Source: an uncultured Alphaproteobacteria bacterium
GTDB taxonomy: Bacteria; Pseudomonadota; Alphaproteobacteria; HIMB59; GCA-002718135
Reading direction: 5' to 3'
Assembly (NCBI GenBank): GCA_902524385.1
Contig: CABZCZ010000002.1
Span: 112,541-176,540 of the forward strand
DNA: 64,000 nucleotides
The notes under the pieces were generated by a model. It was not told the origin of the DNA. It ran no database searches and was given only the letters and a program-made list of their open reading frames with translations. The stretch's first letter is position 1, and the number at the start of each line of letters is the position of its first letter. A program made the translations under genes and the position numbers. This document shows positions 9,271 through 42,322 of the stretch, in pieces.

Positions 9271-9283
9271 CATTTACTAAAAT

Positions 9284-9310: not shown

Positions 9311-9323
9311 TTCTAAATCTATC

Positions 9324-22639: not shown

Positions 22640-22738
22640 AAAAGATTTATATTCTATAATTATAAAAAAATAAATTGATTAACTCTTTAAATTATTTTTT
22701 TATTATAATAGTATCTATTTTTTTTGCGAAAGGAACCT

Positions 22739-24583
22739 ATGAAAACAGTTAGAATGTCTTGTTCACACGCATTAATTAAATATTTAACTATGCAAAAAAT
22801 TTTAATTAATGGAAAAAAAGAACCACTTTTTCCAGGTGCATTTGGTATTTATGGTCATGGTAATGTAGCTTGTATTGGACAGGCCATGGAAGAATATCAA
22901 AATGAACTTCCAGGATACAGAGGTCATCATGAACAAAACATGGCTTTAACTGGAATAGCATATGCTCGTGCAAAAAGAAGAAAACAAATATTTGTTGCTA
23001 CTTCGTCAGTTGGACCAGGCGCAACTAACATGGTTACCGCAGCAGCAGTTGCATTAAGCAACAGACTTCCAATTTTACTTTTACCAGGTGATACATTTTC
23101 AAGTCGTTTTCCAGACCCTGTTTTACAACAAGTAGAACATTTTAATTCTCCTTCAGAAACTCAGAATGATTCATTTAAATCTGTATCAAGATATTTTGAT
23201 CGAATAACTAGACCTGAACAAATTTTAACTTCTTTACCTCAAGCAATTAATGTGATGCTTGACCCTGCAGATTGTGGTCCTGCAGTAATTTCGATGTCAC
23301 AAGATGTTCAAGGAGAAGCTTTTGATTATCCAGAAATTTTTTTTGAAGAAAAAATTTATCGAATAAGAAGAATTCACCCTGATCCAAATCAAATACAAAA
23401 AGCAGCTGATAAATTAAAAAAATCAAAACAACCTATTATTATTTCTGGAGGAGGTGTTTTATATTCAGAAGCTGAAGAGGAAATTTCTGCTTTTGCAATG
23501 AAACATAATATTCCCGTAACTGCAACTGTAATGGGTATTGGATGTATGAACAAAGATGATCCCTATTATATAAGTGCAATTGGATGTTTAGGAGAAGGCT
23601 CATCTAATAACCTTGCTACAGATACAGATTTAGCACTAGCTGTAGGAACAAAATTAGGAGACTTTACAACTGGCTCTTGGACGAATTTTGAAAATGAAAA
23701 TTTTCAACTTGTATCAATAAATACTTCACGATTTGACACTATAAAACATCGTGCAACTCCTGTTGTAAGTGATGCAAAAATTGGACTTCAAGAATTATCA
23801 AAAGTATTAGGAGATTGGAGAGCGCCTGATAATTGGTACCAGCGATCTATTGAGGAAAGAGATAGATGGGATGAATATGTTGCTAAAGAGAGTGGGCCAA
23901 CAAACCAAGAATTACCGTCCTATGCTCATGCAGTGGGTGCAGTTTATAGAAATTCAGATCCATCAGATATTGTTGTAACTGCAGCTGGAGGCTTAGTTGG
24001 AGAAGTGGTTCAAATATGGAAACCAAAAGAGCTAAATACTTTTGAAACTGAATGGGGATTTAGTTGCATGAGTTATGAAATATCGGGTGCACTTGGAATT
24101 AAAATGGCAAAACCTGATCAAGATGTAATTGTATTTGTAGGAGATGGTTCATACCTATTACAAAACAGCGATATTTATAGTTCTGTTTTGTATGATAAAA
24201 AATTAATAATAGTTGTTTGTGATAATGGTGGTCATATGGTTATTAATAGATTGCAGCTAGCAAAAGGTGGGAATGAATATCTTTGTAATCTCAATGCAGC
24301 CAGAGCTACAAATGTACAGTTTGTAGATTTTGAAGCTCATGCAAAAAGTATGGGGGCAAATGGTGAGACCGTTAAATCCATTTCAGAGTTAGAGGCTGCT
24401 TTTAAAAGAGCAAAAGAATCAGACAAAACCTATCTGATTTCTATGAAAACAGATGGTTATGAATGGTTAGAAGGTACAGCTTTTTGGGAGAGTCCAACAC
24501 TTGAAGTGGATAATACCGAAGGTAAGAAATTAGCTCTTAATGAATTTTTAGAAGGAAAAAATAAACAACGTAAGGGCGTATAA
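22739..24583 (+). CDS. iolD: 3D-(3,5/4)-trihydroxycyclohexane-1,2-dione acylhydrolase (ThDP enzyme)
   Basis: GHGNV, SSVGPGATN, PDPVLQQ, GFSCMSYEI, VGDGSY; start reassigned to ATG 22739. Confidence 0.9.
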   Translation: MKTVRMSCSHALIKYLTMQKILINGKKEPLFPGAFGIYGHGNVACIGQAMEEYQNELPGYRGHHEQNMALTGIAYARAKRRKQIFVATSSVGPGATNMVTAAAVALSNRLPILLLPGDTFSSRFPDPVLQQVEHFNSPSETQNDSFKSVSRYFDRITRPEQILTSLPQAINVMLDPADCGPAVISMSQDVQGEAFDYPEIFFEEKIYRIRRIHPDPNQIQKAADKLKKSKQPIIISGGGVLYSEAEEEISAFAMKHNIPVTATVMGIGCMNKDDPYYISAIGCLGEGSSNNLATDTDLALAVGTKLGDFTTGSWTNFENENFQLVSINTSRFDTIKHRATPVVSDAKIGLQELSKVLGDWRAPDNWYQRSIEERDRWDEYVAKESGPTNQELPSYAHAVGAVYRNSDPSDIVVTAAGGLVGEVVQIWKPKELNTFETEWGFSCMSYEISGALGIKMAKPDQDVIVFVGDGSYLLQNSDIYSSVLYDKKLIIVVCDNGGHMVINRLQLAKGGNEYLCNLNAARATNVQFVDFEAHAKSMGANGETVKSISELEAAFKRAKESDKTYLISMKTDGYEWLEGTAFWESPTLEVDNTEGKKLALNEFLEGKNKQRKGV

Positions 24584-27510: not shown

Positions 27511-28428
27511 ATGAAATTTTTTATTTCTATAATTACTACTTCAGTATTGTTTTTTTCAGGTAGCCTTCTAGCAGGCTCACACGCTAAAACAATAATGTTA
27601 AGTACCAAAGGACCAGGTGCTGGAAACCCATTTTGGGCTTCAGTAGAAGCTGGTGCTAAAGATGCTGCTGAAGAATTAGGTGTTAACCTAATTATCCTAT
27701 CACCACCACAAGAGAGTGATGTTATGGCTCAGGTGGCGCAAATTGAAGACCAAATAGCAAAAGGTGTAGACGGTATTGCGATTGCACCAACTGACCCTAA
27801 TGCAGTTGCACCAATTCTTGATGATGCAATGGCTTCTGGTGTTCCAGTTGTATACATTGATACTAATGGAATTAATGAAGGTGTAACTTTCATTGGAACT
27901 AATAATATTAATGGTGCTGCTTTAGCCGCTCAATACATCTGTGATAACGTTCCAAGTGGCTCTGATGTTGCAATTCTTCAAGGAATGATAACTCAAACTA
28001 CTGGTCAGCACAGAGCTGAAGGATCTCATAAAGGTCTTGAAGCATGTGGCATGAACATTGTTGCTGAACTTCCAGCTAACTGGGATACCGCACAAGGTAT
28101 GTCAGTAACTGAAGATATCTTAACTGGTAACCCCAATCTAAAAGCAATCTTTGCTTCTAATGATAATATGGGTCTAGGCGCTATCCAAGCATTAAAAAAT
28201 GCTGATATGCTAGATGATGTTTTGGTTGTTGGATTTGATGCTAACCCTGATGCTGCTGCAAGTGTAATGGCTGGTGAAATGTCAGCTACTATTGCTCAGT
28301 TCTCATACAACATGGGATATATGGGTGTAGAAAATGCACTTAAATTAGCTAATGGTGAAAGCATTCCAGATAACATTGATACTGGAACTGTGTTAGTAAC
28401 TAAAGAAAATGCTGCTGACTTTATGTAA
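27511..28428 (+). CDS. Sugar/polyol ABC substrate-binding protein (RbsB-like)
   Basis: Signal peptide, NPFW, ANW, ASNDNM, VGFD; AGGAGG SD. Confidence 0.92.
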   Translation: MKFFISIITTSVLFFSGSLLAGSHAKTIMLSTKGPGAGNPFWASVEAGAKDAAEELGVNLIILSPPQESDVMAQVAQIEDQIAKGVDGIAIAPTDPNAVAPILDDAMASGVPVVYIDTNGINEGVTFIGTNNINGAALAAQYICDNVPSGSDVAILQGMITQTTGQHRAEGSHKGLEACGMNIVAELPANWDTAQGMSVTEDILTGNPNLKAIFASNDNMGLGAIQALKNADMLDDVLVVGFDANPDAAASVMAGEMSATIAQFSYNMGYMGVENALKLANGESIPDNIDTGTVLVTKENAADFM

Positions 28429-28449
28429 GTCATCAAGACTATTTAAATT

Positions 28450-28478
28450 AAAAAGGCCGCAATTTGCGGCCTTTTTTT
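28450..28478 (+). terminator. Rho-independent terminator
   Basis: AAAAAGGCCGCA...TGCGGCCTTTTTTT. Confidence 0.88.
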
Positions 28479-28543
28479 ATTAAAATATAACATTTACATA
28501 TTGAATTAATTCCTTAAATTGAAATGATTATTTAGGAGGAAAA

Positions 28544-29497
28544 ATGAAAAAATTTATTTTAATTATAGCTTCGGCTGTAAGTTTATTAACTTTTTCTTTC
28601 TCAGCAAATGCACTTAAAGTAGGTGCTCTATATCTTGATACTGCTGGTTTTTTTGGTGAGATTAAATATGGTATAGAAAAAGCTGGGGAAGAAGAAGGTA
28701 TCGAGCTAACTGGAGCGAATTCTCAAAGTGATGTAGCAAGGGAAGCTGAATTTATCGATACGCTTTTAGCAACTGGCGTTGATGTTGTAATAATGTCACC
28801 AGTTTCAACTGATTCTTCTGTTGCAGCTGTTGAAAGACTTGCAGAAGCAGGTGTTCCAGTTGTATGCTATAATACATGTTTAAATGATGAAGATGCTAAA
28901 AGACTCGCTTATGCACTTGTTACTACAAGTCAAAGAGAGTTGGGTTATCCAGTTGGTGTTATTGCTGGAAACTGGGCAATCAAAGCTGGTATTGATTTAA
29001 AAATTGGTATTCATAATTGTAATAGATACGAAGCTTGTCAGGAAAGAGAAGATGGTTTTATAGATGGACTAAATTCTACAGGTGTAAATTTTGAAGTTAT
29101 CAATAACCAAGAAGCCTTTGCAAATGATGTTGCAACTCAAGTTGGTACAGACATGCTTATTGCAAACCCTGAAATTAACCTAATGTATGCTGCTAATGAA
29201 GGTGGGACAATTGGTGCCGTTAATGCTGTTCTGGCAGCAGGACAAATTGGTCAAACATACGTAATGGGAACTGATGCAACTGCAGAATTAATGAATTTTG
29301 TAAGTGATGGAGAAATTCTATTAGCTGTTAATTCACAATTCCCAAGAGATATGGGAGCAGGTGCAATGAGAGCTGCACTAAAAGCAGTTAAAGGTGAGGC
29401 TATCGACGAATATGTTCAATTAACACCTACTAAAGTATTTACTTCTATAGACAAAATAGCCATTGATACATGGTTGTCTGAAAGAGGATACGACTAA
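28544..29497 (+). CDS. Sugar ABC substrate-binding protein (RbsB-like)
   Basis: Signal peptide ending ANA, GVPVVCYN, AANEGG; AGGAGG SD. Confidence 0.9.
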   Translation: MKKFILIIASAVSLLTFSFSANALKVGALYLDTAGFFGEIKYGIEKAGEEEGIELTGANSQSDVAREAEFIDTLLATGVDVVIMSPVSTDSSVAAVERLAEAGVPVVCYNTCLNDEDAKRLAYALVTTSQRELGYPVGVIAGNWAIKAGIDLKIGIHNCNRYEACQEREDGFIDGLNSTGVNFEVINNQEAFANDVATQVGTDMLIANPEINLMYAANEGGTIGAVNAVLAAGQIGQTYVMGTDATAELMNFVSDGEILLAVNSQFPRDMGAGAMRAALKAVKGEAIDEYVQLTPTKVFTSIDKIAIDTWLSERGYD

Positions 29498-29507
29498 CTA
29501 TTTTTTT

Positions 29508-29534
29508 AAGGGGTATCTAAAGATACCCCTTTTT
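29508..29534 (+). terminator. Hairpin between binding protein and permease
   Basis: AAGGGGTATC-TAAA-GATACCCCTT followed by T-run. Confidence 0.72.
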
Positions 29535-29537
29535 CTT

Positions 29538-30530
29538 ATGACAGAACAGACTCTAGAAAAAACTAAAAAGAGAATAAAAATCAGTAATCTGCATGAGATA
29601 GGATTGCTTATAGCGTTAATTATTGTCTTACTTTTATTTTCTTTCACTACTGAAAACTTTTTTACACAAAGAAATTTTACAAGTATTTTGAGAAGTGCCT
29701 CTTATGTTGGTTTAATTGCTTTTCCAATGACTTTTGTCCTTATCACTAGAGAAATAGATATTAGTGTTGGACCATCAGTTGCTTGGTCAGGTTTACTTTT
29801 TGTAATTTTAATAAAGTGGTACGACTTTGGTTATTTAACTTCAGCTGTAATAGTAATTTTATGGGGGACCTTACTAGGGTATTTTATAGGAGTAGCTAGA
29901 ACAAAATTATTCATTCCTACATTTATTACAACTTTAGCACTATGGAGTGCCTTAAGAGGCTATTCTCTTTTTGTTACCGAAGGTCGGCCTATAGCAATAA
30001 GTAATAAGGAATTTAGATATTTTTTTGGAGGAGATATTTTAGGTTTACCAACAGTCACATGGATAATGCTTGGAGCTTTTCTTATTTTTTGGTTTGCAAG
30101 CAAGTATACTGTTACCGGAACTAACTTCTATGCAGTTGGTGGAAATCCTAAAGCTGCAAGAAATATTGGTATTAATGTTGATAGAGTAAAGATTTTAGCA
30201 TTAATAGGAACCAGTCTTTTTTCTGCTATTGTTGGTATATTATTTGTGGCTAGAGTTTCCTCTGGAAACGCAAATTTAGCAGATGGAATGGAATTTGACG
30301 TTATAGCTGCAGTTGTTGTTGGAGGAACAGCACTTGCAGGTGCTGTAGGAACTATGACTGGTACACTTCTAGGATGTGTTTTTATAGCAATGATTAGCAA
30401 TGGATTAATACATTGGGGTATAGATCCTGATTTGAATAGAGTAGTAAAAGGAATAATTATTTTTTTAGCTGTTGTAATTAATTCAAATTTTACCTTTAAA
30501 TCAAATTCAGGTGGACCAAAAGAGGACTAA
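29538..30530 (+). CDS. Monosaccharide ABC permease
   Basis: EIDISVG, AVGGN..AA, EFDVIAAVVVGG; start reassigned to ATG 29538. Confidence 0.9.
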   Translation: MTEQTLEKTKKRIKISNLHEIGLLIALIIVLLLFSFTTENFFTQRNFTSILRSASYVGLIAFPMTFVLITREIDISVGPSVAWSGLLFVILIKWYDFGYLTSAVIVILWGTLLGYFIGVARTKLFIPTFITTLALWSALRGYSLFVTEGRPIAISNKEFRYFFGGDILGLPTVTWIMLGAFLIFWFASKYTVTGTNFYAVGGNPKAARNIGINVDRVKILALIGTSLFSAIVGILFVARVSSGNANLADGMEFDVIAAVVVGGTALAGAVGTMTGTLLGCVFIAMISNGLIHWGIDPDLNRVVKGIIIFLAVVINSNFTFKSNSGGPKED

Positions 30531-31270
30531 TGGAGATTCTAGAATTAAATAAAATATCTAAAAATTTTGGAGCTATAAAGGCATTGGATAACGTTACACT
30601 TTCATTAAGATCAGGTGAAGTTTTAGGATTAATGGGAGACAATGGTGCTGGTAAATCTACTTTAATTAAAATTATAGCAGGCAATTTTAAACAGTCATCT
30701 GGAACAATAAATTTTGAAAATAAAAAAGTTCAATTTTCAAAACCTATGGAAGCGAGAGATAAAGGTATAGAAGTTGTCTACCAAGATTTGGCATTGTGTG
30801 ATAATTTAACTGCTGCCTCAAATATTTTTCTTACAAGGGAGATTAAGAGAAATTTTGGAATACTAAAAATAATTAATTTTTCAGAGATGTTCAAAAGAGC
30901 TAAAGATATTTTCAAAGAACTTAAATCTGAAACTTTACCAGATGAGGAAGTGAAAATGATGTCTGGTGGGCAAAGACAAGCAGTTGCCATTGGTAGAACA
31001 AAATTATCAGCAGCTAAAGTTGTATTATTAGATGAGCCTACTGCAGCAATTAGCGTAAGACAGGTTGCAGAAGTTCTAGAGTTAATTAAGCAACTTAAAA
31101 ATCAAGGTATTGCGGTTGTAATTATTAGTCATAGAATGCCAGATGTATTCGCTGTTAGCGATAGAATAGCTGTACTTAGGAGAGGCCAGTTAGTGGCTAA
31201 TAAACTAGCGAAAGAAAGTTCACCTGAAGAAGTTACAGCTTTAATAACCGGTGCTATTGAAAAAGCTTGA
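30530..31270 (+). CDS. Monosaccharide ABC ATP-binding protein (single domain)
   Basis: GDNGAGKS, MSGGQRQ, DEPTAA. Confidence 0.93.
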   Translation: MEILELNKISKNFGAIKALDNVTLSLRSGEVLGLMGDNGAGKSTLIKIIAGNFKQSSGTINFENKKVQFSKPMEARDKGIEVVYQDLALCDNLTAASNIFLTREIKRNFGILKIINFSEMFKRAKDIFKELKSETLPDEEVKMMSGGQRQAVAIGRTKLSAAKVVLLDEPTAAISVRQVAEVLELIKQLKNQGIAVVIISHRMPDVFAVSDRIAVLRRGQLVANKLAKESSPEEVTALITGAIEKA

Positions 31271-31291: not shown

Positions 31292-32263
31292 ATGCATGTA
31301 GATGATACTTGGTTTAAACCTGAATTAAATAAAAGATTATTAAAAGATCTTTCAAGAAAGAGCGATTGGGAAGGTTTAAAACATTTTGGTATTTATTTCT
31401 TTTTTTTATTCTTCTTTGGTTTTAGTATTTTTTTAACATGGGGAAGCTTATTAGCTATACTTCCTCTCATTTGTTACAGTACAATATGGGCCTACAGCCC
31501 ATCTAACTGGCACGAAACACTTCATAGAACAGCATTCAAAAGTAAATTGTTAAATAATGTTTTCTATTATTTAAGCTCATTTATGGCAAATATGGAGCCA
31601 GTGAGATGGAGATGGAGTCATACCTTTCATCACAGCCATACTCTTCAAACACACGGTGATTATGACCACGAAATACAATTGACAAGACCAACAGATTTAA
31701 TTCATTTCTTTTGTCAATTTATTCCTTTTGGACAACTAATCTATCCGCATAAAACTCTTCAGTTCGAAATACTAAAACACTCAATGGGTTACTTAACAGA
31801 TGTCGTAAAACAGAATGCTCCAGAAAAAGAAAAATCAATTATAATTAGAAATTCAAGATTGTTTGTTTTGTTGTGGTTATTAATTATTTCAATTTCGATA
31901 TATTATAATTCTTGGTTACCAATTTTTTTATTCCTACTTCCAAATTATTTAGGAGCTCCACTAAACCAAATTGTCAACATAACACAACATTTGGGTGTGC
32001 CATTTGATGTTAAAGATCATCGGTTAACAACTCATAATATAAAATTAAACCCTATCTTTAGTTTTTTATATTATCATATGGAATATCATCTTGAGCACCA
32101 TCTATTTCCAACTGTACCATCTTATAATCTTCCTAAATTACACAACCTAATCAAAGATCAAATACCTAAACCACATCCTTCATTATTTTCATTTTGGAAA
32201 TCAGTTCTTCCATCTGTTATTAAACAAGCTTACAATTCAAAGCATACATACAAAATGTATTAA
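31292..32263 (+). CDS. Membrane di-iron oxygenase, fatty-acid-desaturase superfamily, MocD-like (copy 1)
   Basis: His boxes HETLH, HTFHH, HLEHH; WRWSH and QH..DVKDHR. Confidence 0.85.
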   Translation: MHVDDTWFKPELNKRLLKDLSRKSDWEGLKHFGIYFFFLFFFGFSIFLTWGSLLAILPLICYSTIWAYSPSNWHETLHRTAFKSKLLNNVFYYLSSFMANMEPVRWRWSHTFHHSHTLQTHGDYDHEIQLTRPTDLIHFFCQFIPFGQLIYPHKTLQFEILKHSMGYLTDVVKQNAPEKEKSIIIRNSRLFVLLWLLIISISIYYNSWLPIFLFLLPNYLGAPLNQIVNITQHLGVPFDVKDHRLTTHNIKLNPIFSFLYYHMEYHLEHHLFPTVPSYNLPKLHNLIKDQIPKPHPSLFSFWKSVLPSVIKQAYNSKHTYKMY

Positions 32264-33084
32264 TATTTATCAGATAATTTCAAAAAACTTTCGTATTCTT
32301 TATCTTCAATTCCAACAGTGATCTTAGGATCATCAAACTTTTTATCTTCAGTGTCTCTAATAAACTCCTTATAAGCATTTACTCTTTCAAGATGAAGTTT
32401 ATCGAACTCTTTTTTAAAGTTTTTATAGATTCTTGAATGTCTTGGTACGTGGCCTGTGTTGTATCCAAGAATGTCTTGAGAAAATAAATATTGGCCATCA
32501 CAACCAGAACCACTGCCCATTGAAATTGTTAATAGCTTTACTTTTTTTGTAATTATTTCAGCTACTTTTGGAGGAACAACTTCAACCTCTAGACCTATTG
32601 CTCCTGCATCATCAAGTTCTAAAGCATGTTCTAATACTTCTATAGCTTCTTTGGCATTTTTACCAATAGCTCTAAAACCACCAATCCAATTTACATGACC
32701 TGGAATCAAACCAATATGACTAATTACTGGAACTTTTTCTTTTCTTAAGCTTCTGATAATACTTGAACTATTATTTGTATAAAATGAATCACAACCAATT
32801 GATAACAATTTATAAGCCGCCCTTACCGCTTCATCAGCAGTTGCGTATGATTTTTCAGGTGCGGCACTCATCAGGTGTGTGTTAGGTGCCGCATCTCTTA
32901 TTCTTTTAACATCATCTAATTTTCCAAAAATTCCATGGTGCGGCATATCATACGCTGTACATATCATATCAATCCCAGCCTCTTCTGCCGCTATTGCCTC
33001 TTCTACATTATTTACATATACCTCATGAATTTGTCTGACACTCTTAAGCTTTAACAGGTCATATACGGTTAGTTTATTTTTCAT
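32260..33084 (-). CDS. Ketopantoate hydroxymethyltransferase (PanB)-like paralog, non-canonical
   Basis: AEEAGID, HIGLIP, EVEVVP, MGSG..CDGQ..DILG present; LVGDS and KxEG absent. Confidence 0.8.
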   Translation of the reverse strand: MKNKLTVYDLLKLKSVRQIHEVYVNNVEEAIAAEEAGIDMICTAYDMPHHGIFGKLDDVKRIRDAAPNTHLMSAAPEKSYATADEAVRAAYKLLSIGCDSFYTNNSSSIIRSLRKEKVPVISHIGLIPGHVNWIGGFRAIGKNAKEAIEVLEHALELDDAGAIGLEVEVVPPKVAEIITKKVKLLTISMGSGSGCDGQYLFSQDILGYNTGHVPRHSRIYKNFKKEFDKLHLERVNAYKEFIRDTEDKKFDDPKITVGIEDKEYESFLKLSDKY

Positions 33085-33130
33085 AAATATTGTTTATTTT
33101 TTTTTAATAAAAATTATATATATAAAATAT

Positions 33131-34159
33131 ATGACTGTCATTAGAGATACAAATGTTTCTGCGGATCTTGAAGCCAAACTAGGTAAGAATATTTGGTGGA
33201 AACCTGATCTTGACAGAAAAGTATTAAAAGAACTTTGTGTTAAAAGATCCTTACCAGGAATTATTTATGTCTCCTTATATTTTTTTGCTTTAGCTATTTC
33301 AGGTTATCTAGCATATTACACTTGGGGCACTTACTGGACAATTTTATGGTTTTGGGTTTATGGAACCATTTACACTTTCAGCGGCGCTTACGATCACGAA
33401 AGTCGACACAGAACACTTTTTAAAGAAAGATGGTTAAACGATTTATTTCAATATATTTTTTCTTTCATGACAAACTTTGAACCAGTTCGATGGAGATGGA
33501 CTCACACATTACATCATAGTTACACATTACATACGAAAGAACCTCATGATTTTGAAATTCAAGTAGATAGACCAAGTAAGTTATTTAAATATTTCGTAAG
33601 TTTCATCCCTTTTGGACCTCTATTATGGATACATCAGTCCTATCTAGTAGAAACATTAAAAAATTCTCTAGGTATAATGACTCCGGTAATAAGAGATTGT
33701 GTTCCAAAAGAACATCAATGGAAAGTTTTTTTATCATCTAGAATTCACATGTTAATATGGTTTTCTATAATTTTATTTTCTATATATTTTCAAACTATTT
33801 TACCTGTATTATTTTTTCTTTTACCTACTTTTTATGGCAACACATTATTTTTTATGTGCGGTTTAACTCAACATGCAGGACTTGCGTTTGATGTTAAAGA
33901 TCACAGAGTAAATACAAGAACAGTAATTCTTAATCCAATTTTAAGCTGGCTTTATATTAAATTAGAGTATCATATCGAACATCATATGTACCCTCAAGTA
34001 CCTTGGTATAATCTACCAAAATTACATAAAATTATTAAGAATCAACTACCAAAACCAAACTATGGTTTAATTAGCGCCTATAAAGATATTGTGCCAGCTA
34101 TTATTAAGCAGGCATTTGATCCTAACTACGTTCCTGTTAGAAAAATACCAAACGTATAG
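33131..34159 (+). CDS. MocD-like membrane di-iron oxygenase (copy 2)
   Basis: His boxes HESRH, HTLHH, HIEHH; QHAGL..DVKDHRVNTRT. Confidence 0.85.
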   Translation: MTVIRDTNVSADLEAKLGKNIWWKPDLDRKVLKELCVKRSLPGIIYVSLYFFALAISGYLAYYTWGTYWTILWFWVYGTIYTFSGAYDHESRHRTLFKERWLNDLFQYIFSFMTNFEPVRWRWTHTLHHSYTLHTKEPHDFEIQVDRPSKLFKYFVSFIPFGPLLWIHQSYLVETLKNSLGIMTPVIRDCVPKEHQWKVFLSSRIHMLIWFSIILFSIYFQTILPVLFFLLPTFYGNTLFFMCGLTQHAGLAFDVKDHRVNTRTVILNPILSWLYIKLEYHIEHHMYPQVPWYNLPKLHKIIKNQLPKPNYGLISAYKDIVPAIIKQAFDPNYVPVRKIPNV

Positions 34160-34220
34160 CGTAATTTTATTTTTCAATTTTTTATTTTAAATTTTGTAGT
34201 AATGTATATCATTTAACAGT

Positions 34221-35369
34221 ATGAAAAATATTGGATTGATTGGCTGTGGTAATATTGCAGAAACATATTTTAGAGCAAAAGAATATTTTAATAACATAAA
34301 TTTTGTAGCTTGTGCTGATATCAATCTAGATGCAGCTAAAAAAACAGCTGAGCAGTACAAAATTGCAGCTTTATCCGTGGATGAAATATTTAATGATAAA
34401 AATGTAGACATTATTCTTAACCTCACAATTCCTCAAGCGCACTATGAAATATCGAAAAGAGCTCTTGAGTCAAACAAACATGTTTATTGTGAAAAACCAA
34501 TGAGTGTTAAATTTGATGATGCAAAAGAATTACTAAATTTAGCAAAAAAAAATAGCTTATATATTGGCAATGCCCCTGATACTTTTTTAGGAGGAGGAGG
34601 GCAGCTTACACGAAATTTAATTGATAATAATGATATTGGACAAGTTCTAACAGGTAATTTTATATTTGCCTTTCCGGGTGTTCAAGATTTTCATCCAAGT
34701 CCTGAGTCTTGGTTTCAAGAAGGGGGAGGGCCTGTAATAGACATGGGTCCATATTTTTTTACAACACTGGTTAATCTTCTAGGCCCTGTTAAAAATATAA
34801 GAGGTAGAGGAGCAAAATTTTTTGACAAAAGAGAATACAAAGCTGGTCCAAAAAAAGGAGAAACCTTTAATGTGGAAATTCCAACTTCGTACATGTTTAA
34901 TATTGAATTTCAAAGTAAAGCAATTGTCCAGGGTTTCATTTCATTTGATGTTTTAAATCATAAACGTAATCATATGGAGCTTTATGGTACTATGGGTTCA
35001 ATTGTTGTCCCTGACCCAAATATGTTTGGTGGTCCAGTATCTATTTCTGGGGAGTTTGGATCTGAATGGAAAAATATAAGTGTCGAAGATAAGCCTCTTG
35101 GAAAGACAAATATCGTCAATCATAGTGGAAGAAGTAATGAGGCACCAGAACAAGCAAATTATAGAGGTATTGGACTAGCTGAAATGATTGATGCGATTGA
35201 AAACAATAGAATGCATAGATGTAATGGAGAGTTGGCTCTTCATGTTATTGATGTAATTGAATGTGCCATGATTTCATCAATTTATAAAGTAGAAGTAGAA
35301 CTCAGATCTTCTTGTGTGAGGCCAGAGCCAATGCATGATGATTTCGTGAGGCAAATCCTAAAAAAATAA
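34221..35369 (+). CDS. Gfo/Idh/MocA family oxidoreductase
   Basis: IGCGNI, HVYCEKP, APDTFLG, DMGPY. Confidence 0.88.
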   Translation: MKNIGLIGCGNIAETYFRAKEYFNNINFVACADINLDAAKKTAEQYKIAALSVDEIFNDKNVDIILNLTIPQAHYEISKRALESNKHVYCEKPMSVKFDDAKELLNLAKKNSLYIGNAPDTFLGGGGQLTRNLIDNNDIGQVLTGNFIFAFPGVQDFHPSPESWFQEGGGPVIDMGPYFFTTLVNLLGPVKNIRGRGAKFFDKREYKAGPKKGETFNVEIPTSYMFNIEFQSKAIVQGFISFDVLNHKRNHMELYGTMGSIVVPDPNMFGGPVSISGEFGSEWKNISVEDKPLGKTNIVNHSGRSNEAPEQANYRGIGLAEMIDAIENNRMHRCNGELALHVIDVIECAMISSIYKVEVELRSSCVRPEPMHDDFVRQILKK

Positions 35370-35484
35370 TAATAAATTTTACCTTTTGTTCATTAGTGCG
35401 ATAATTTTACGTTTAAATTCACAATATTTCTGCTTGTTTTACAAATCTATTCTTGCTAGGGAAACATAAAAATAGGAGGAATGC

Positions 35485-36450
35485 ATGAAAAAATTTGCTT
35501 CAATTATTTTAGCTTCAGTAGCTCTTTTCGCTACTTCAGCAAAAGCAGAATATAAATTTAACTTTGTTATGCATAGTGACACAAACAACGCTTTTTGGGC
35601 AGCAGTTCATAAAGGTTTTAAAGATGCTTGTGCACAAATTAATGCAGATTGCCAAATGTTAACTCTATCAGGTGATGGAGATCAACAGGAGCAATTACAA
35701 AACTTAGAATCTTCAATCGCTCAAGGTGTTGATGGTATTGTAACTACAATTACAAATCCAACAATTTTTGATGCCGCTGTTGACGAAGCTTTAGCAGCTG
35801 GTATTCCAGTTATTACTGCTAATACAGATGACCCAGAAGGTGCTGCAGGTAGTAATAGACTTGCATACGTTGGTCAAGATTTGGAAGCAGCAGGTTATGA
35901 ACTTGCAGCAACTTTATCTAAACAATTTCCTGATGGACCAGTACATGTTCTTATAGGTGTGGCAGACATGAACCAATCATGGGCCTACACAAGAGCTAAC
36001 GGTATTGCAAGATTTATGGATGACTATAAAGCTGCAAATCCAGATAGAGAAGTGACTTATGAAAAAATCGAATCTGGAATGGATCTATCAACTGTAGGAA
36101 ACAGAGTAGCTTCATATGTTCAAACTAATCCAAATACTACTGCATATTTTGATGTAGGATTTTGGGAAGCAGGAGCAGCTCAAGGTATCAGAAATCTTGG
36201 TTATGAGCCTGGTCAAATGCTGCTTGCGGGATTTGACTTAGTTGACGTGGTATTTGAAGAAATGGAAAAAGGTTATGTTCAACTAACCGTTGACCAACAG
36301 CCATACTATCAAGGTTATATGTCAGTTCACCAACTATACTTAATGAACAAGTATGGTTTAAGTGCACTTGATATCAACACTGGTAAGGCAATGATTGGTC
36401 CGGATGATGTTGCCCAAATCCGTTCTTTCAAAGGAATGTCAGTTAGATAA
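35485..36450 (+). CDS. Sugar/cyclitol ABC substrate-binding protein
   Basis: Signal peptide ending SAKA, FW..V..G, YVGQD, GFD, DQQPYYQGY; AGGAGG SD. Confidence 0.9.
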   Translation: MKKFASIILASVALFATSAKAEYKFNFVMHSDTNNAFWAAVHKGFKDACAQINADCQMLTLSGDGDQQEQLQNLESSIAQGVDGIVTTITNPTIFDAAVDEALAAGIPVITANTDDPEGAAGSNRLAYVGQDLEAAGYELAATLSKQFPDGPVHVLIGVADMNQSWAYTRANGIARFMDDYKAANPDREVTYEKIESGMDLSTVGNRVASYVQTNPNTTAYFDVGFWEAGAAQGIRNLGYEPGQMLLAGFDLVDVVFEEMEKGYVQLTVDQQPYYQGYMSVHQLYLMNKYGLSALDINTGKAMIGPDDVAQIRSFKGMSVR

Positions 36451-36462
36451 CAAAAACAATGT

Positions 36463-36494
36463 AAAGCCGGATAAAATTTATCCGGCTTTTTTTT
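36463..36494 (+). terminator. Hairpin / terminator after binding-protein gene
   Basis: AAAGCCGGATAAA / TTTATCCGGCTTT followed by T-run. Confidence 0.82.
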
Positions 36495-36508
36495 AAGTAA
36501 GAAATTAT

Positions 36509-37546
36509 ATGAAAAGTAACAGATTAAAATCAATATTGATGCGTCCAGAAATAAGTACGTTCATAATGTTTGTAGTAATTATGACTGCATTCTTTATTGC
36601 AAATGATAAGTTTCTTAGCCCTAGAAATATTCGAATAGTTATGGGAATAACACCTGAGTATATCATCGTTGCTATTGGTATCGCTATACTAATGATCTCT
36701 GGTGAATTTGACTTATCAGTTGGATCTGTTTTTGCACTCGTACCTATGACAATGGTTCAATTAGTACATCAAGGCATTCCACCATGGTTTGCTATAGCAC
36801 TGGGATTATCAATTGGTATTGCTGTTGGTTTTGTAAATGGTTTTATAACGATCAGATTTGGGATACCCTCCTTTATAGCCACTTTAGGTATGTTATACAT
36901 TGCTAGAAGTTTAACTACTGTTGCAACAGGCGGATTTCCTCCACCATTCCCTCACTCATTACCAAATGAACTTTTTGTGTTTCAATTTGAAGTTTTTAGA
37001 GCATCACTATTTTGGATGCTTGGAGTAGCATTTATTGCTGGCATAATGCTACATAGAAGTAACCTTGGAAATTGGATTTATTCTACAGGCGGTGATACGC
37101 CCGCAGCATCATCAATGGGAATAAAGACTAATAATGTAAAAATGTTTTGTTTTATACTTTGTGGATTTTTAGCAGGCTTTGCAGGAATGATTCAAACTTT
37201 CAGAATCGAAGCCCCTTTACCTTCTCAGGGATATCTTCTTGAATTAGAGTCTATCGCTGCAGCAGTAATTGGAGGGGTCAGCTTATTTGGTGGAGTTGGA
37301 ACAATATTCGGAGCTGCAATCGGAGCAATACTTATTCGCTTTCTTGAAAGTGGAATTATAATGGCGAGAATTGATGCCGAATGGTTCAGAGCAGGACTAG
37401 GATCTTTAATTATCATCTCCGTTGTATTTAATACTTGGGTTGTAAGAAGAGGTGAAAATATGGTTCATAAAAACCAAGCTGAAGAAAATGAAATTGACTC
37501 CAAGAAAAATACTCAGAAAAGTGAAGGAGAAACTAATGAGCAGTGA
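36509..37546 (+). CDS. Monosaccharide/cyclitol ABC permease
   Basis: GEFDLSVG, IPSFIATLG, ELESIAAAVIGG. Confidence 0.92.
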   Translation: MKSNRLKSILMRPEISTFIMFVVIMTAFFIANDKFLSPRNIRIVMGITPEYIIVAIGIAILMISGEFDLSVGSVFALVPMTMVQLVHQGIPPWFAIALGLSIGIAVGFVNGFITIRFGIPSFIATLGMLYIARSLTTVATGGFPPPFPHSLPNELFVFQFEVFRASLFWMLGVAFIAGIMLHRSNLGNWIYSTGGDTPAASSMGIKTNNVKMFCFILCGFLAGFAGMIQTFRIEAPLPSQGYLLELESIAAAVIGGVSLFGGVGTIFGAAIGAILIRFLESGIIMARIDAEWFRAGLGSLIIISVVFNTWVVRRGENMVHKNQAEENEIDSKKNTQKSEGETNEQ

Positions 37547-38279
37547 GAATATTATTGAATGCCAAGATCTTAATAAATATTACTCTGGAGTTCATGCTCT
37601 TAAAAATCTCAGTTTAAAAATAAAAAAAGATACGGTTGTTGGTTTAATTGGTGATAACGGTGCTGGGAAATCAACATTAATTAAAATTCTATCCGGTGCT
37701 CATGCACCTGACTCTGGCCACATTTACTTTGAAGGAAATGAAGTGAAATTTAAGTCTACTAAAGAAGCGATGAACTTAGGAATAGAAACTATCTATCAAT
37801 ATTCTGCATTAATTCCACAGATGTCTATTGCACGAAATATTTTTATAGGAAGAGAGCAGACAACTTTTTCACTTGGATCAATTGGTTTAATGAAATCTAA
37901 ATCAATGGATAAAGCTGCGATGGAAGCGTTAAATGATGTTGAACTTCATTTAAGGTCTCCTGAAACACCTGTAAACCAACTCTCAGGAGGAGAAAGACAA
38001 GGTGTTGTAATTGCAAGAGCTATGTATTTTAAATCAAAAGTTTTAATCTTGGATGAACCAACAAACCATTTATCAGTTAAAGAAACAAATAAAGTTCTTC
38101 GGTTTGTTGAAGGATTAAAAAAACAAGGTGTAACATCGATATTTATTACTCACAACTTGAGTCACGTCTATCCTATAGCAGATCATTTGTGTGTTATGGC
38201 AAGGGGTGAAAAGATTGCTGATTTAGCAAAAGTGGATACAAACATTGATGAGTTAACTGATCTATTGGTAAATGGATAA
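37536..38279 (+). CDS. Monosaccharide ABC ATP-binding protein (single domain)
   Basis: GDNGAGKS, LSGGERQ, DEPT; start reassigned to ATG 37536 after AAGGAG. Confidence 0.92.
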   Translation: MSSENIIECQDLNKYYSGVHALKNLSLKIKKDTVVGLIGDNGAGKSTLIKILSGAHAPDSGHIYFEGNEVKFKSTKEAMNLGIETIYQYSALIPQMSIARNIFIGREQTTFSLGSIGLMKSKSMDKAAMEALNDVELHLRSPETPVNQLSGGERQGVVIARAMYFKSKVLILDEPTNHLSVKETNKVLRFVEGLKKQGVTSIFITHNLSHVYPIADHLCVMARGEKIADLAKVDTNIDELTDLLVNG

Positions 38280-38317
38280 ATATTGTTTAAGATCACTTAT
38301 AAATATGGGGGCGATTA

Positions 38318-39253
38318 ATGATTAGTAAAACACAAATAGAGCAATATAATGAAGAGGGATATACAATAGTTGAAGATGTATTTAGTATGGATGAATTAAA
38401 TCCAATATTAAATGAGTTTGAGGAAATCGTTGAAGATTTTGCAGACAAAGCTTTTAAAGCAGAAAAAATTTCAAATAAACATGAGGATAAAGATGTTTTC
38501 AAAAGATTGGCAGCTCTTGAGAAAGATTTTAAAGGATCATCTGTTTTAATTCATCATAGAGGAGAACTTAAACCTGCACTCGCAAATTTATGGGGATCAA
38601 AAAAACTTTTAGACATTGTTGAGAATTGGGTAGGAAAAGATATCTCAGGCCACCCTGTTTGGAACATTAGATCAAAAACTCCACAAACTGCAAGAATGAC
38701 AGTTCCTTGGCATCAAGACTCAGCTTACTTAAAAGAAGGTGCTGAAAAAACGACTCAACCAGCTGCCTGGATTCCTTTTCTAGATGTAAATAAGGAAAAT
38801 GGATGCATGCAGGTACTTCCTGGAGGACATAGACCAGAAAGAGTATTGAACCACAAACTTGAAAAAAAAGATGGTTCAGTAAAAGACTCTTGGTATTTGT
38901 TTATTGAAGAAAAAGATATTGCTGAGGAAAAAATAGTTACCTGTGATATGAAGGCTGGTTCTGTTTTATTTCTTCACCAATTAGTTCCGCATAGATCACT
39001 TGAAAATTTATCTGATTCCGTAAGATGGAGTGTTGATTTAAGATTTCAAAATCCAAAAGATGAAGCTGGATTTCATACTGGTTTAGTTGACCCAATCATA
39101 ATGAGAAAATCTGATGATACCAATTATACAGCTGACTGGAATTCTTGGTTTGAAGGATACGAAGAACAACATACAAAATTTAGAGGCACTTCTAAAAAAG
39201 ATCAGTTTGATTCTAGCGTTGATGGAAGCTGGCTTGAACGTTGGGATAATTAG
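38318..39253 (+). CDS. PhyH-family Fe(II)/2-oxoglutarate dioxygenase
   Basis: WHQD (HxD), ENGCM..PGGH, VPHRS..N...RWS.DLRF. Confidence 0.88.
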   Translation: MISKTQIEQYNEEGYTIVEDVFSMDELNPILNEFEEIVEDFADKAFKAEKISNKHEDKDVFKRLAALEKDFKGSSVLIHHRGELKPALANLWGSKKLLDIVENWVGKDISGHPVWNIRSKTPQTARMTVPWHQDSAYLKEGAEKTTQPAAWIPFLDVNKENGCMQVLPGGHRPERVLNHKLEKKDGSVKDSWYLFIEEKDIAEEKIVTCDMKAGSVLFLHQLVPHRSLENLSDSVRWSVDLRFQNPKDEAGFHTGLVDPIIMRKSDDTNYTADWNSWFEGYEEQHTKFRGTSKKDQFDSSVDGSWLERWDN

Positions 39254-39267
39254 ACTAAATAATAAAA

Positions 39268-40251
39268 ATGCACGTAAATTTAGAAGATTGGTACAAACCA
39301 GAACTAGATAAAAGGGTTTTAAAAAATTTATCAAAAAGAAAAGACCTACCTGGTCTAATACATTTCTTTTTTTACTTTTTATCTTTAATTGTCTCGGGTT
39401 ATCTTGCTTACATAACTCTAGGTACTTGGTGGACGTACTTATTCTTCTTTATATATGGAACAATTTATGCGTTCAGTGTAGCTAACTGGCATGAAACTGT
39501 TCACCGAACTGCATTCAAAACAAGATGGATAAATGAAATTTTTTATCACATTAGTTCTTTCATGTGTGATTTTGAAGGTTTCCGATGGAGATGGAGTCAT
39601 ACATTTCACCATTCCAAAACTCTTCAAACTGAGGATGATTATGATCATGAAATTCAAGTTTCAAGACCTGTGGAGTTGTTAGCATTCTTTTTAAATTTTA
39701 TTCCACTAACTGATTTACTTTATCCACATAAACTTATTAAGTACGAAGTTTTAAAACATGCCTTTGGAAAATTTTCACCAGTTATTGATATTACTGCCCC
39801 TAAAGAAGAAAAGAAAAAAATATTATGGAACTCAAGATTATATGTTTTGATATGGGTAATAGTAATTGCTTATTCTTTTTATATTGGTTCCATCTTACCA
39901 ATTGTATATATTATTTTACCAACATATATTGGTAAACCAATCTGGTTTGCTGTTAATGTAACACAACATTTAGCAGCTAAAGTTGATACAAAGGATCATC
40001 GCTTAAGCACTTATTCAGTAAGAATAAATCCTATTTTAAGTTTTTTGTACTGGCATATGGAATATCATCTAGAACATCATATGTATCCAATGGTTCCTTC
40101 GTATAATTTAAAAAAACTTCGTAAAGAAATTGACTCAGAACTTCCTAAACCCTTTAATAGCCTTTTTGATTTTTATAGAAAAGTTTTACCTTCGGTAATA
40201 GCTTTAGCAACTAATCCAGATAAATATTATAAAGTGAAACTTAATAATTAG
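39268..40251 (+). CDS. MocD-like membrane di-iron oxygenase (copy 3)
   Basis: His boxes HETVH, HTFHH, HLEHH; closest to copy 1. Confidence 0.85.
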   Translation: MHVNLEDWYKPELDKRVLKNLSKRKDLPGLIHFFFYFLSLIVSGYLAYITLGTWWTYLFFFIYGTIYAFSVANWHETVHRTAFKTRWINEIFYHISSFMCDFEGFRWRWSHTFHHSKTLQTEDDYDHEIQVSRPVELLAFFLNFIPLTDLLYPHKLIKYEVLKHAFGKFSPVIDITAPKEEKKKILWNSRLYVLIWVIVIAYSFYIGSILPIVYIILPTYIGKPIWFAVNVTQHLAAKVDTKDHRLSTYSVRINPILSFLYWHMEYHLEHHMYPMVPSYNLKKLRKEIDSELPKPFNSLFDFYRKVLPSVIALATNPDKYYKVKLNN

Positions 40252-40253
40252 AT

Positions 40254-40679
40254 TTACCAAGTTCCCAAATTTTCCATAGATTTCCATGGTTCCTGAACTG
40301 GAAGTGCTGCACCCTCTTGTAAAATTTCTAAAGATATTCCATCAGGTGAACGCACAAAAGCCATATGTCCATCACGCGGTGGTCTATTTATAGTGACACC
40401 ATTATTCATCAACTTTTCACATACCTCATAAATATTTTTGACACTGTAAGCAAGATGACCAAAGTTTCTTCCGCTAGTATATTCTTCTGGATCCCAATTA
40501 TATGTTAATTCGAGTAGTCCTGTTTTTTCATCACTGTTTTCTGCACCTAGAAATATAAGAGTAAAGCGTCCTTTTTCATTATCTACTCTTCTAACTTCTT
40601 TTAAATCCAACTTATTGCAATAAAAGTCTAGTGACTCATCAATATTGTTAACTCTAACCATAGTATGTAAATATTTCAT
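40254..40679 (-). CDS. gloA: Lactoylglutathione lyase (glyoxalase I)
   Basis: YLHTMVRV, LELTYNWD, FGHLA, FVRSPDG..LE. Confidence 0.9.
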   Translation of the reverse strand: MKYLHTMVRVNNIDESLDFYCNKLDLKEVRRVDNEKGRFTLIFLGAENSDEKTGLLELTYNWDPEEYTSGRNFGHLAYSVKNIYEVCEKLMNNGVTINRPPRDGHMAFVRSPDGISLEILQEGAALPVQEPWKSMENLGTW

Positions 40680-40740
40680 TTTTATAATCCTGTATAATTT
40701 TGTATTTGTACTACAAAATACATAGTATAATTTAAATTAT

Positions 40741-42252
40741 ATGAAAACTGTTTTTTTACTTTTTGATTCATTAAACAAAAGAATGTTAAATTCTTATGGT
40801 GGAAAATATATTGAAACACCAAATTTTAATAGATTAGCAAAAAAATCGGTTCAATTTAATAATCATTATATAGGAAGCATGCCTTGTATGCCTGCCAGAC
40901 GTGATATGCATTCAGGACGGCTAAGCTTCCTTCATCGAGCATGGGGACCTTTAGAACCATTTGATAATTCATTTCCAGAAATGTTAAGAATTAATAATAC
41001 GTATACTCACCTAGTAACTGATCACTATCATTACTTTGAAGATGGTGGAGCAACTTATCATAATAGGTTTAATTCATGGGACTTTATTCGAGGACAAGAG
41101 AGCGATCCTTGGAAAGCAATGGTTCAGCCTCCACTTGAAAAATTGAGAGAAAAATATCACAAATCGCAATTCAATTTAAGTGATAGGGAGGGAAAATATT
41201 ATAACTATGTAATAAATAGTGAATTTATAAAAGATGAGAAAGATTTTCCATCAGTGAAATGTTTTCAATCTGGATTAGATTTTTTAAATATAAATAAAAA
41301 TACTGATAATTGGTTTCTACAATTAGAGACTTTTGATCCACATGAACCCTTTTTCGCTCCTGAAAGATTCAGAGAAAAACTTAAGACAAATTATAGAGGG
41401 CCAAGATTAGATTGGCCTCAATATGATAAAGTAAGGGAAAATGATGAAGAGGTTGCTGAATTAAAAGCAAATTATTTAGCCCTTATAGGATTATGTGATT
41501 ATTTGTTAGGAACAGTATTAGATTTTTTTGATTCAAATAATCTCTGGCAAAATACAGCATTAATTTTAACTACAGATCATGGTTTTATGCTAGGCGAGCA
41601 TGATTGGTGGGCAAAAAACAGGATGCCGTTGTATAATGAGATAGCAAATATTCCGCTTTATTTTTCTCATCCTGATTTCAAAAAGTATAATGGCGAAAAA
41701 AGAAATGTCGTTACTCAAAATATTGATTTAATGCCAACCTTTATGATAATGCACGGTCATAAAATCCCAAAAGAAGTAAAAGGAAAATCGATTGTAAATT
41801 TTTTAGATAAAGATAATGAAAGAGATTATTGTGCATTATATGGATATTGGGGTGGAGGAATTAATATTTCAGATGGGAAATATACATATTTTCATTATCC
41901 AGAAAATTTTAATCAATATGACAGAAGTAGGTACCAATACACGTTAATGCCTACAAATATGAGACAATTTTTTTCAAATGAAGAATTGCAAACAGCAACT
42001 ATGCACAAACCATTTAACTTCACTAAAAATATTCCAGTAATGAAGGTAAATAAAATATTAAGGAAGACTGATTCCCTTGCGACTTTAATTGATACAAAAA
42101 GCGCCCTTTATGACTTGAAAGAAGATCCAGGACAATTAAATCAATTACATGATAATGATCTAATTGCTCGATATAAAGATCTCATGTTTAAAGAAATAAA
42201 ATTATATGATCCTCCTAAAGAATTATTGGAAAACTATTTTAATCTGGAATAA
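40741..42252 (+). CDS. Cys-type (formylglycine) sulfatase, no signal peptide
   Basis: FDS at N-terminus, CMPAR (CxPxR), DPHEP, TTDHG..GEH..K. Confidence 0.9.
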   Translation: MKTVFLLFDSLNKRMLNSYGGKYIETPNFNRLAKKSVQFNNHYIGSMPCMPARRDMHSGRLSFLHRAWGPLEPFDNSFPEMLRINNTYTHLVTDHYHYFEDGGATYHNRFNSWDFIRGQESDPWKAMVQPPLEKLREKYHKSQFNLSDREGKYYNYVINSEFIKDEKDFPSVKCFQSGLDFLNINKNTDNWFLQLETFDPHEPFFAPERFREKLKTNYRGPRLDWPQYDKVRENDEEVAELKANYLALIGLCDYLLGTVLDFFDSNNLWQNTALILTTDHGFMLGEHDWWAKNRMPLYNEIANIPLYFSHPDFKKYNGEKRNVVTQNIDLMPTFMIMHGHKIPKEVKGKSIVNFLDKDNERDYCALYGYWGGGINISDGKYTYFHYPENFNQYDRSRYQYTLMPTNMRQFFSNEELQTATMHKPFNFTKNIPVMKVNKILRKTDSLATLIDTKSALYDLKEDPGQLNQLHDNDLIARYKDLMFKEIKLYDPPKELLENYFNLE

Positions 42253-42277
42253 TTAGTAAAACTTTTATCATCGTGGT

Positions 42278-42306
42278 TTGCTTTAGGCATTAAGATAGAG
42301 TAAGAT
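42278..42306 (+). promoter_or_regulatory. Putative xylA promoter TTGCTT-N17-TAAGAT
   Basis: Near-consensus -35/-10 with 17-nt spacer, followed by GAGGA SD. Confidence 0.6.
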
Positions 42307-42322
42307 AGTTAACGAGGAAATT

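Follow-up and report, generated by a model that had tools for sequence, protein, structure and literature searches.

Three MocD-like membrane di-iron oxygenase genes among sugar-import genes of an uncultured HIMB59-lineage alphaproteobacterium

We analysed a stretch of 64,000 nucleotides, referred to in its entirety as the window, from an uncultured Alphaproteobacteria bacterium (GTDB lineage Bacteria; Pseudomonadota; Alphaproteobacteria; HIMB59; GCA-002718135), corresponding to positions 112,541 to 176,540 of the forward strand of contig CABZCZ010000002.1 (NCBI GenBank assembly GCA_902524385.1). Within 9 kb of this window lie three genes for membrane di-iron oxygenases that resemble MocD of rhizobial rhizopine catabolism, here called copies 1, 2 and 3 in their order along the DNA (Table 1). 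Between and around them are a gene of the PanB fold family, genes for a Gfo/Idh/MocA-family dehydrogenase and a PhyH-family dioxygenase, and two sugar importers. The genome to which the window belongs amounts to 1.43 Mb, is ~80% complete and has a GC content of 29%.

All three copies cover the Pfam FA_desaturase profile (PF00487) almost end to end in a Pfam search, at pairwise identities of 53% (copies 1 and 3), 49% (copies 2 and 3) and 45% (copies 1 and 2). Each has complete HxxxH, HxxHH and HxxHH boxes, and the eight box histidines, kept in every copy, are invariant among the paralogs and the related rhizobial proteins described below. The strings RWRW(S/T)H and TQH...D.KDHR can be read in the translations, as can NWHET.HRTAFK in copies 1 and 3 and YDHESRH in copy 2. 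Two long hydrophobic stretches flank boxes 1 and 2 in each copy, the usual layout of membrane di-iron desaturases and hydroxylases. An initial annotation of this DNA had described three intact paralogs within 9 kb that share the three boxes and the strings WRW(S/T)H and QH..D.KDHR, with copies 1 and 3 most alike and copy 2 set apart by YDHESRH. The uninterrupted open reading frames (ORFs) and their translations bear this out, and copies 1 and 3 are both the closest pair and sister clades in the tree presented below. Its remark that automatic pipelines would call such genes fatty acid desaturases was also correct, as close homologues do carry that name in databases, while its count of three paralogs fits the window and is incomplete for the genome, which has six genes of the subfamily.

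Compared with orthologues in two other genomes of the same genus, the ratio of non-synonymous to synonymous substitution rates (dN/dS) was 0.018-0.108 over the three genes (copy 1, 0.08-0.11; copy 2, 0.02-0.03; copy 3, 0.05-0.06), and therefore all three are under purifying selection. The copy 1 orthologue at one homologous locus (L017) is 97% identical. As a separate observation, synonymous divergence from the two relatives amounts to 1.2-1.4 for copy 3 and 0.09-0.42 for copies 1 and 2 (a ratio of 3 to 14), so the right-hand part of the island may differ in history, through recombination or replacement.

Seven PF00487 genes are present in the genome, six of which belong to one subfamily (43-53% identical). 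The seventh (C1:144051-145070; L015 8052-9071, - strand) is AlkB-like, with the motifs HELIHR, EHIYGHH and NYIQHYGL; it is only 19% identical to copy 1 and lies beside genes for a Zn-dehydrogenase and an EamA transporter. Outside the window, two paralogs on contig 4 enclose genes for an aldehyde dehydrogenase, an importer, ThuA and a Gfo/Idh/MocA protein, and another on contig 5 opens an operon discussed below. At least one copy was found in 23 of 24 other genomes of the genus (1-7 matches each; genomes 56-89% complete), and the sister family in the same order has exactly one copy in 15 of 16 genomes (86-99% complete).

To place these genes we used a maximum-likelihood tree of 82 rows from a quick search; 20 of 82 scanned loci held no full-length ORF fitting the pattern and were left out. 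All six paralogs fall into one marine clade of 53 rows (Shimodaira-Hasegawa-like approximate likelihood ratio test (SH-aLRT) support 99). In these quick trees, which have a single, very long AlkB-like outgroup and contain neither Des sequences nor the authentic MocD of strain L5-30, the marine clade is sister to a rhizobial clade that includes a depositor-named MocD. Well-supported marine subclades correspond to copy 2, to copies 1 and 3 together (99), to the two contig-4 copies (96), to the contig-5 copy with the single copy of the sister family, to a seventh paralog missing from the assembly, and to Pelagibacteraceae. Each paralog has its own orthologues in other genomes, and the duplications are therefore old.

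An AlphaFold2 model of copy 3 (predicted local distance difference test, pLDDT, 88.9; predicted template modelling score, pTM, 0.87) has as its nearest solved folds desaturase-like chains in two chloroplast motor complexes, FtAlkB (TMq 0.55) and SCD1 (~0.36). Curated NCBIfam models assign none of the copies to a desaturase equivalog: DesA/DesB models reach at most 45 bits against a cut-off of 500, and there are further weak matches to CrtR and CrtW, none of these lipid-type scores exceeding 45 bits where the cut-offs are 350-500. The arginine hydroxylase GntB (NF041365), at 24-41 bits against 380, is the best or second match for copies 1 and 2 and the third for copy 3.

As possible electron partners, the genome encodes a MocE-family Rieske ferredoxin and a flavin adenine dinucleotide (FAD) ferredoxin reductase in the contig-5 operon. 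There, the oxygenase paralog is followed by the FAD reductase (Pyr_redox_2 and Reductase_C domains), the ferredoxin and a PanB-like gene, and then by lactonase, dehydrogenase and sugar-acid dehydratase genes; the operon is divergent from a sugar importer. The ferredoxin, scored over together with its neighbours, reaches 136.1 bits against the TIGR02377 cut-off of 136.15, has an intact CxH...CxxH motif and shares 57% identity with its MocE-family counterpart in Rhizobium rosettiformans. One further candidate carrier in the window itself, a Rieske-fold ORF of 106 amino acids at 21357-21677 (+), was rejected, with its histidine ligands changed to cysteine (CPC...CPSC) and only 34 bits against 136 for the MocE family. 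Its best matches are NirD (41 bits) and the MocE family, and it sits between genes for an FMN-dependent 2-hydroxyacid dehydrogenase and a D-2-hydroxyacid dehydrogenase, just upstream of iolD. Since the window contains no usable ferredoxin or reductase, we assume that copies 1-3 are supplied in trans from contig 5.

The same linkage recurs in other genomes. Across 80 homologous loci from species-representative genomes, examined over 8 kb on either side of the gene, a MocE-like ferredoxin was present at 43, distributed as 38 of the 43 lower-identity loci (L053-L095, mostly soil and freshwater) versus 5 of 37 in the remainder (L016-L052, mostly marine). A MocF-like reductase was detected at 17 of the 80 at the threshold chosen. 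Rhizobial homologues align end to end at 34-40% identity, with plasmid-borne ones at 36-40% over 98% of the length. On plasmid p1 of R. rosettiformans a cluster runs in the order LacI, oxygenase, MocE-family ferredoxin, FAD oxidoreductase, PanB-like protein and IolG, adjoining genes for a sugar ATP-binding cassette (ABC) importer and a TIM-barrel protein as well as purU and folD. The name MocD was given by a depositor to a protein that shares 90% identity with this oxygenase. The initial annotation's statement that the motifs match MocD rests on the end-to-end alignment with this rhizobial group, a comparison with annotated homologues and not with L5-30 MocD itself. A link to inositol catabolism is seen in IolD within the window and iolE, above its cut-off, elsewhere in the genome, where iolC-like and iolB-like matches both score below theirs, the latter located within 10 bases of a contig end.

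The second recurrent partner is the PanB-like gene, convergent with copy 1 and divergent from copy 2. It scores below the cut-offs of both PanB models (TIGR00222, 109 bits against 207.55; NF001452, 124 against 272) and lacks the GDS and KIE motifs, which are present in the housekeeping PanB of the same genome (C2:17163-17948, 230 bits), and so the gene belongs to the PanB fold family without being PanB. Aligned with Escherichia coli PanB (1m3u), it has Ala74 in place of Asp84 and 'FYTNNS' in place of 'VKIEGG', and keeps the glutamate at Glu181; the Asp84 and KIE positions are, we presume, metal and substrate ligands of PanB. The PanB-like gene is intact and under selection, at a dN/dS of 0.09-0.10 against orthologues from the two same-genus genomes. 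Four PanB-like genes are found in the genome, all in sugar clusters. The other three (G000 C3:38638-39465, C5:59573-60430 and C5:76770-77597) likewise lack the PanB motifs; one follows a GH4 glycosidase and another lies between a sugar importer and a pair of short-chain dehydrogenase/reductase and PhyH genes. The family is co-expanded with the oxygenases in these clusters.

The association of this family with the oxygenase is strong whichever gene is taken as the starting point. A PanB-like gene occurs at 15 of the 80 oxygenase-centred loci. Conversely, metagenome loci picked by PanB-like similarity have a MocD-like gene in 50 of 80 cases, at most 300 bp away in 34, and in 15 of the 17 loci whose flanks reach 3 kb or more in each direction. 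The loci lack phylogenetic independence, and those picked by PanB-like similarity include contigs of only 34-45% identity. The pairing spans marine and rhizobial lineages, and in the sister family a PanB-like gene comes directly after the single oxygenase copy. At one sister-family locus (genome G428, L121, ~7300-12100) the oxygenase and PanB-like pair has no adjoining sugar genes and is enclosed by a glutamine-synthetase-like gene, CorA and the alpha-subunit gene of a Rieske ring-hydroxylating oxygenase. PanB reactions attach or detach a hydroxymethyl unit beside a carbonyl, and the rhizobial cluster has folD and purU; on these grounds we take the linkage as tentative support for a reaction that sets a one-carbon unit free, and it suggests a role in one-carbon handling. 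A complex prediction for copy 2 with the PanB-like protein scored 0.00, which gives no verdict and is evidence neither way.

The neighbours of the three copies are sugar genes, as the initial annotation had it, and the profile scans saw no lipid-metabolism gene among them. Copy 1 ends an operon-like run that includes IolD, a 2-hydroxyacid dehydrogenase and a set of ABC-transporter genes (two each for ATPases, permeases and binding proteins). After copy 2 come the Gfo/Idh/MocA dehydrogenase, whose matches to IolG and to equivalogs for other sugar dehydrogenases are weak and below cut-off throughout, and a second importer; the PhyH gene and copy 3 close this run, which is likewise operon-like. 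The best NCBIfam match of the second importer's binding protein is the rhizopine solute-binding protein (NF052284) at 99.5 bits against a cut-off of 420, and this is therefore not a rhizopine locus. As the GTG start listed for the ATPase gene falls inside the permease gene, translation probably begins further downstream. A PhyH gene stands beside all five of the closest copy 3 homologues (L016-L020). Among the ORFs scanned in the window we saw no regulator, a scan of the whole window gave no Rfam family above its gathering score, and a promoter scan found fewer matches than in shuffled sequences and so carries no information.

Table 1 Features of the window around the three oxygenase genes
Feature	Position	Strand	Evidence or remark
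IolD, ring-cleaving enzyme of inositol catabolism	22724..24583	+	TIGR04377 765 bits vs cut-off 715; 6.7 kb upstream of copy 1
Upstream importer, carbohydrate uptake transporter 2 (CUT2) type, leading into copy 1	27511..31270	+	Profile matches
Upstream importer, binding protein, ribose-binding-protein-like	27511-28428	+	
Upstream importer, second binding protein	28544-29497	+	
Upstream importer, permease	29463-30530	+	
Terminator-like hairpin within upstream importer	29508-29531		
Upstream importer, ATPase	30530-31270	+	
MocD-like membrane di-iron oxygenase, copy 1, 323 aa	31292..32263	+	PF00487 E 3.7e-32; His boxes 74/110/266
PanB-like protein, 274 aa	32260..33084	-	PF02548 E 1e-39; 46 bp from copy 2
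MocD-like membrane di-iron oxygenase, copy 2, 342 aa	33131..34159	+	PF00487 E 1.2e-31; His boxes 89/125/281
Gfo/Idh/MocA-family NAD(P) sugar or inositol dehydrogenase	34221..35369	+	PF01408 and PF22725
CUT2 periplasmic sugar-binding protein	35485..36450	+	PF13407 E 8e-44
Strong terminator-like hairpin, right behind binding-protein gene	36463..36489	+	12-bp stem, then T run
ABC permease (BPD_transp_2)	36509..37546	+	PF02653 E 7e-40
ABC ATPase	37452..38279	+	PF00005 E 1.6e-34
PhyH-family Fe(II)/2-oxoglutarate dioxygenase	38318..39253	+	PF05721 E 5.8e-31; 15 bp upstream of copy 3
MocD-like membrane di-iron oxygenase, copy 3, 327 aa	39268..40251	+	PF00487 E 8.3e-34; His boxes 75/111/267

Further out, positions 40254-43636 hold a glyoxalase I gene convergent with copy 3, then a sulfatase-family gene and then xylose isomerase (above cut-offs), which ends the sugar island; ribF and ileS lie beyond. 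On the other side, positions 1-21300 form one long carbohydrate and organic-acid island with two CUT1 importers, rhamnose mutarotase, several MR/MLE dehydratases, a CoA transferase, MaoC hydratases and an FAA hydrolase.

The region is also represented in RNA libraries. Fourteen seawater RNA libraries hold about one fifth of the sampled words, and in four such libraries from four studies, contigs at least 92% identical covered 22-28 of 30 bins; bins without cover were left uninterpreted. Coverage took in portions of copy 2, copy 3 and the PanB-like gene in all four runs, and portions of copy 1 in three. Among the RNA-library contigs, word depth over the binding-protein stretch at 35478-36374 was 97-1400 versus 0-117 elsewhere, and it drops past the hairpin at 36463..36489.

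Taken together, we favour the reading that the products of the three genes are MocD-type di-iron monooxygenases, four-helix membrane proteins that probably act on water-soluble sugars or cyclitols supplied by the importers, and not on lipids. The reading as MocD-like and not lipid enzymes is well supported by gene context and by the quick trees, while O-demethylation as the reaction is plausible but unproven. In the mechanism we propose, electrons from NAD(P)H would pass through the single contig-5 FAD ferredoxin reductase to the MocE-family Rieske ferredoxin and from there, in trans, to the di-iron centre, which would hydroxylate a methyl group on a sugar or cyclitol. If that group were an O-methyl ether, the resulting hemiacetal would break up into the free sugar or inositol and a one-carbon unit. 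The neighbouring Gfo/Idh/MocA dehydrogenase, together with the iol and sugar-acid pathways, would then process the sugar, and the PanB-like partner would probably handle the one-carbon product (hydroxymethyl or formaldehyde). The six paralogs, tied as they are to different importers and partners (PanB-like, PhyH, aldehyde dehydrogenase, ThuA/Gfo), probably serve different substrates. More tentatively, the oxygenase and the altered PanB-like protein may form a module for harvesting methyl carbon, in which a methyl group is hydroxylated and its one-carbon unit passed to tetrahydrofolate (or a hydroxymethyl branch removed); the six- to seven-fold expansion in the genus might then represent substrate-specific versions sharing one electron chain.

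Several observations weigh against this interpretation. A ferredoxin or reductase gene adjoins the contig-5 paralog alone, with none usable in the window next to copies 1-3, and identity to the rhizobial proteins is low. A rhizopine binding-protein model, run against 401 Rhizobiaceae genomes, gave 12 matches above its cut-off; the DNA taken from around three of these true rhizopine binding-protein genes held no MocD-like gene (up to 10 kb on each side in two, and to a contig end 2.5 kb past the gene in the third), the MocD-like genes of those genomes lying 35-110 kb off or on other contigs, and hence no authentic MocD could be placed in the tree. The MocDEF demethylation step itself reportedly is a genetic and sequence model (Bahar et al. 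1998), and our literature search found no measured activity for any member of the family, MocD included. Three binding proteins searched against the PDB returned generic CUT2 relatives of the ribose, allose and glucose type, which allows no ligand call beyond monosaccharide type. Given the changed ligand positions, a one-carbon role for the PanB-like protein is a guess, and a tblastn search with rhizobial FolD gave no match, which in a genome ~80% complete is not evidence of absence. The RNA libraries attest presence only, as contigs cannot rank genes and DNA carry-over is possible. Finally, in Candidatus Pelagibacter sp. HIMB1748 (L030 7131-10400) a single MocD-like gene, its third box reading HVTHH, directly follows proteorhodopsin, and after it come genes for a plant-type 2Fe-2S ferredoxin, an FAD reductase and a glutathione S-transferase. 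Electron chain and context thus differ from those of the sugar-linked copies, with no adjoining sugar genes; this one Pelagibacteraceae locus indicates that the family is not uniformly sugar-linked and keeps a lipophilic substrate under consideration for that clade.

The PanB-like linkage bears on an alternative in which the enzymes are hydroxylases that do not release O-methyl carbon. Their substrate would instead be a deoxy or branched sugar or cyclitol (for example a C-methyl inositol or 6-deoxy sugar), hydroxylated at a C-H bond or C-methyl group, after which the Gfo/Idh/MocA enzyme would oxidise the neighbouring carbon and the PanB-like protein cut off the hydroxymethyl branch in a reverse PanB-type reaction. 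This would account for a tight linkage that plain O-demethylation, from which formaldehyde leaves spontaneously, does not need, as well as for the dehydrogenase that follows copy 2 and also the rhizobial PanB-like gene; AlkB, the nearest fold with known chemistry, hydroxylates unactivated methyl groups. The loss of GDS and KIE, however, makes PanB-type chemistry itself uncertain, and the only genetic precedent in the family, MocDEF, concerns an O-methyl ether. We regard this alternative as unlikely, though the strongest of those considered.

Lipophilic substrates, whether through fatty-acyl desaturation or hydroxylation or through carotenoid modification, are a good deal less probable. The Pfam family, the weak DesA/DesB, CrtR and CrtW matches, the lipid or alkane enzymes among the nearest solved folds, and the Pelagibacter homologue placed behind proteorhodopsin with its own ferredoxin and reductase all point in that direction. 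On the other hand, the NCBIfam scores fall far short of their cut-offs, the six copies lie inside sugar-importer operons with no lipid or carotenoid gene seen, the family-wide association is with Rieske ferredoxins, joined in rhizobia by LacI, IolG and sugar ABC genes, and the genome has a separate AlkB-like gene. That the three genes are lipid desaturases is very unlikely. The crowding of the copies in one 9-kb stretch of a variable sugar island might suggest recent redundant duplicates or decaying genes without distinct roles, but paralogs only 45-53% identical, each with its own orthologue clade, a low dN/dS (0.02-0.11) and intact box histidines, make this scarcely credible.

The MocD-type oxygenases described here are closest to the MocD-MocE-MocF system for rhizopine (3-O-methyl-scyllo-inosamine) of Sinorhizobium meliloti L5-30 and Rhizobium leguminosarum, which has widespread rhizobial homologues. 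They share its PF00487 subfamily and eight box histidines, the operon of one paralog with a MocE-family Rieske ferredoxin and FAD reductase, and the association of the window with inositol genes (IolD, Gfo/Idh/MocA) and CUT2 importers. They differ in their identity of 34-40% to annotated rhizobial homologues, in having no rhizopine-type binding protein and no regulator that we saw, in numbering six paralogs and not one, in window copies without a ferredoxin or reductase of their own, and in the PanB-like partner, which to our knowledge is not part of the described mocCABRDEF locus. According to the portions of the papers available, rhizopine catabolism is organised as mocDEF, mocR, mocBA and mocC (PMC10107442), and root exudate dominated by pinitol induces the mocDEF homologues of R. 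mesoamericanum, whose identity to the authentic genes is 59.7-79.3% (PMC5789663). For marine bacteria, including SAR11 and AEGEAN-169/HIMB59, we found no description of the family in the literature beyond a passing remark on a mocD-like match in the accessible part of a 2007 deep-sea metagenome paper (PMC1976395); in the text available of a paper on AEGEAN-169 (PMC10308909), the word 'desaturase' does not appear.

A different enzyme has the same proposed job. The only measured marine sugar demethylase that we found in the literature, from the sections of the papers at hand, is a cytochrome P450 of polysaccharide-degrading Bacteroidota that works with a ferredoxin and a ferredoxin reductase on 6-O-methyl-D-galactose and takes the O-methyl group off as formaldehyde (PMC6292453, PMC9400963, PMC10033563). 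Going by the same sections, it resembles the system proposed here in its three-component electron chain and in neighbours tied to formaldehyde handling, and differs in being a haem P450 and not a membrane di-iron enzyme, in serving a polysaccharide degrader and not a streamlined oligotroph, and in having a measured activity. Alkane 1-monooxygenase AlkB-AlkG (PDB 8sbb, 8f6t; Foldseek TMq 0.55, probability 1.00) is likewise a membrane di-iron hydroxylase that receives its electrons from a small iron-sulfur protein, but at 13% identity, with a hydrophobic alkane as substrate and rubredoxin, not a Rieske ferredoxin, as carrier. GntB, the transmembrane L-arginine hydroxylase of guanitoxin biosynthesis, offers a superfamily precedent for a small polar substrate (PMC10367076, as far as its available text goes), although scores to it are far under the cut-off and its pathway is unrelated. 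PanB, the 3-methyl-2-oxobutanoate hydroxymethyltransferase (PDB 1m3u), shares PF02548 and the glutamate at E. coli Glu181 with the PanB-like protein, which differs in scoring below both models, in its missing motifs and in its four copies, all in sugar clusters.

Algae make methylated sugars and cyclitols, and a methyl group left in place can block sugar catabolism. If the favoured reading is true, it would name a carbon source for very abundant, small-genome alphaproteobacteria, correct a widespread mis-annotation as 'fatty acid desaturase' and give a first handle on the PanB-like family. The parts are defined, namely six oxygenases, one reductase, one ferredoxin and four PanB-like genes, and have a rhizobial counterpart in culturable strains. 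Should the methyl-carbon module also prove true, streamlined ocean bacteria would gain both sugar and a one-carbon energy source from the methylated carbohydrates in dissolved organic matter.

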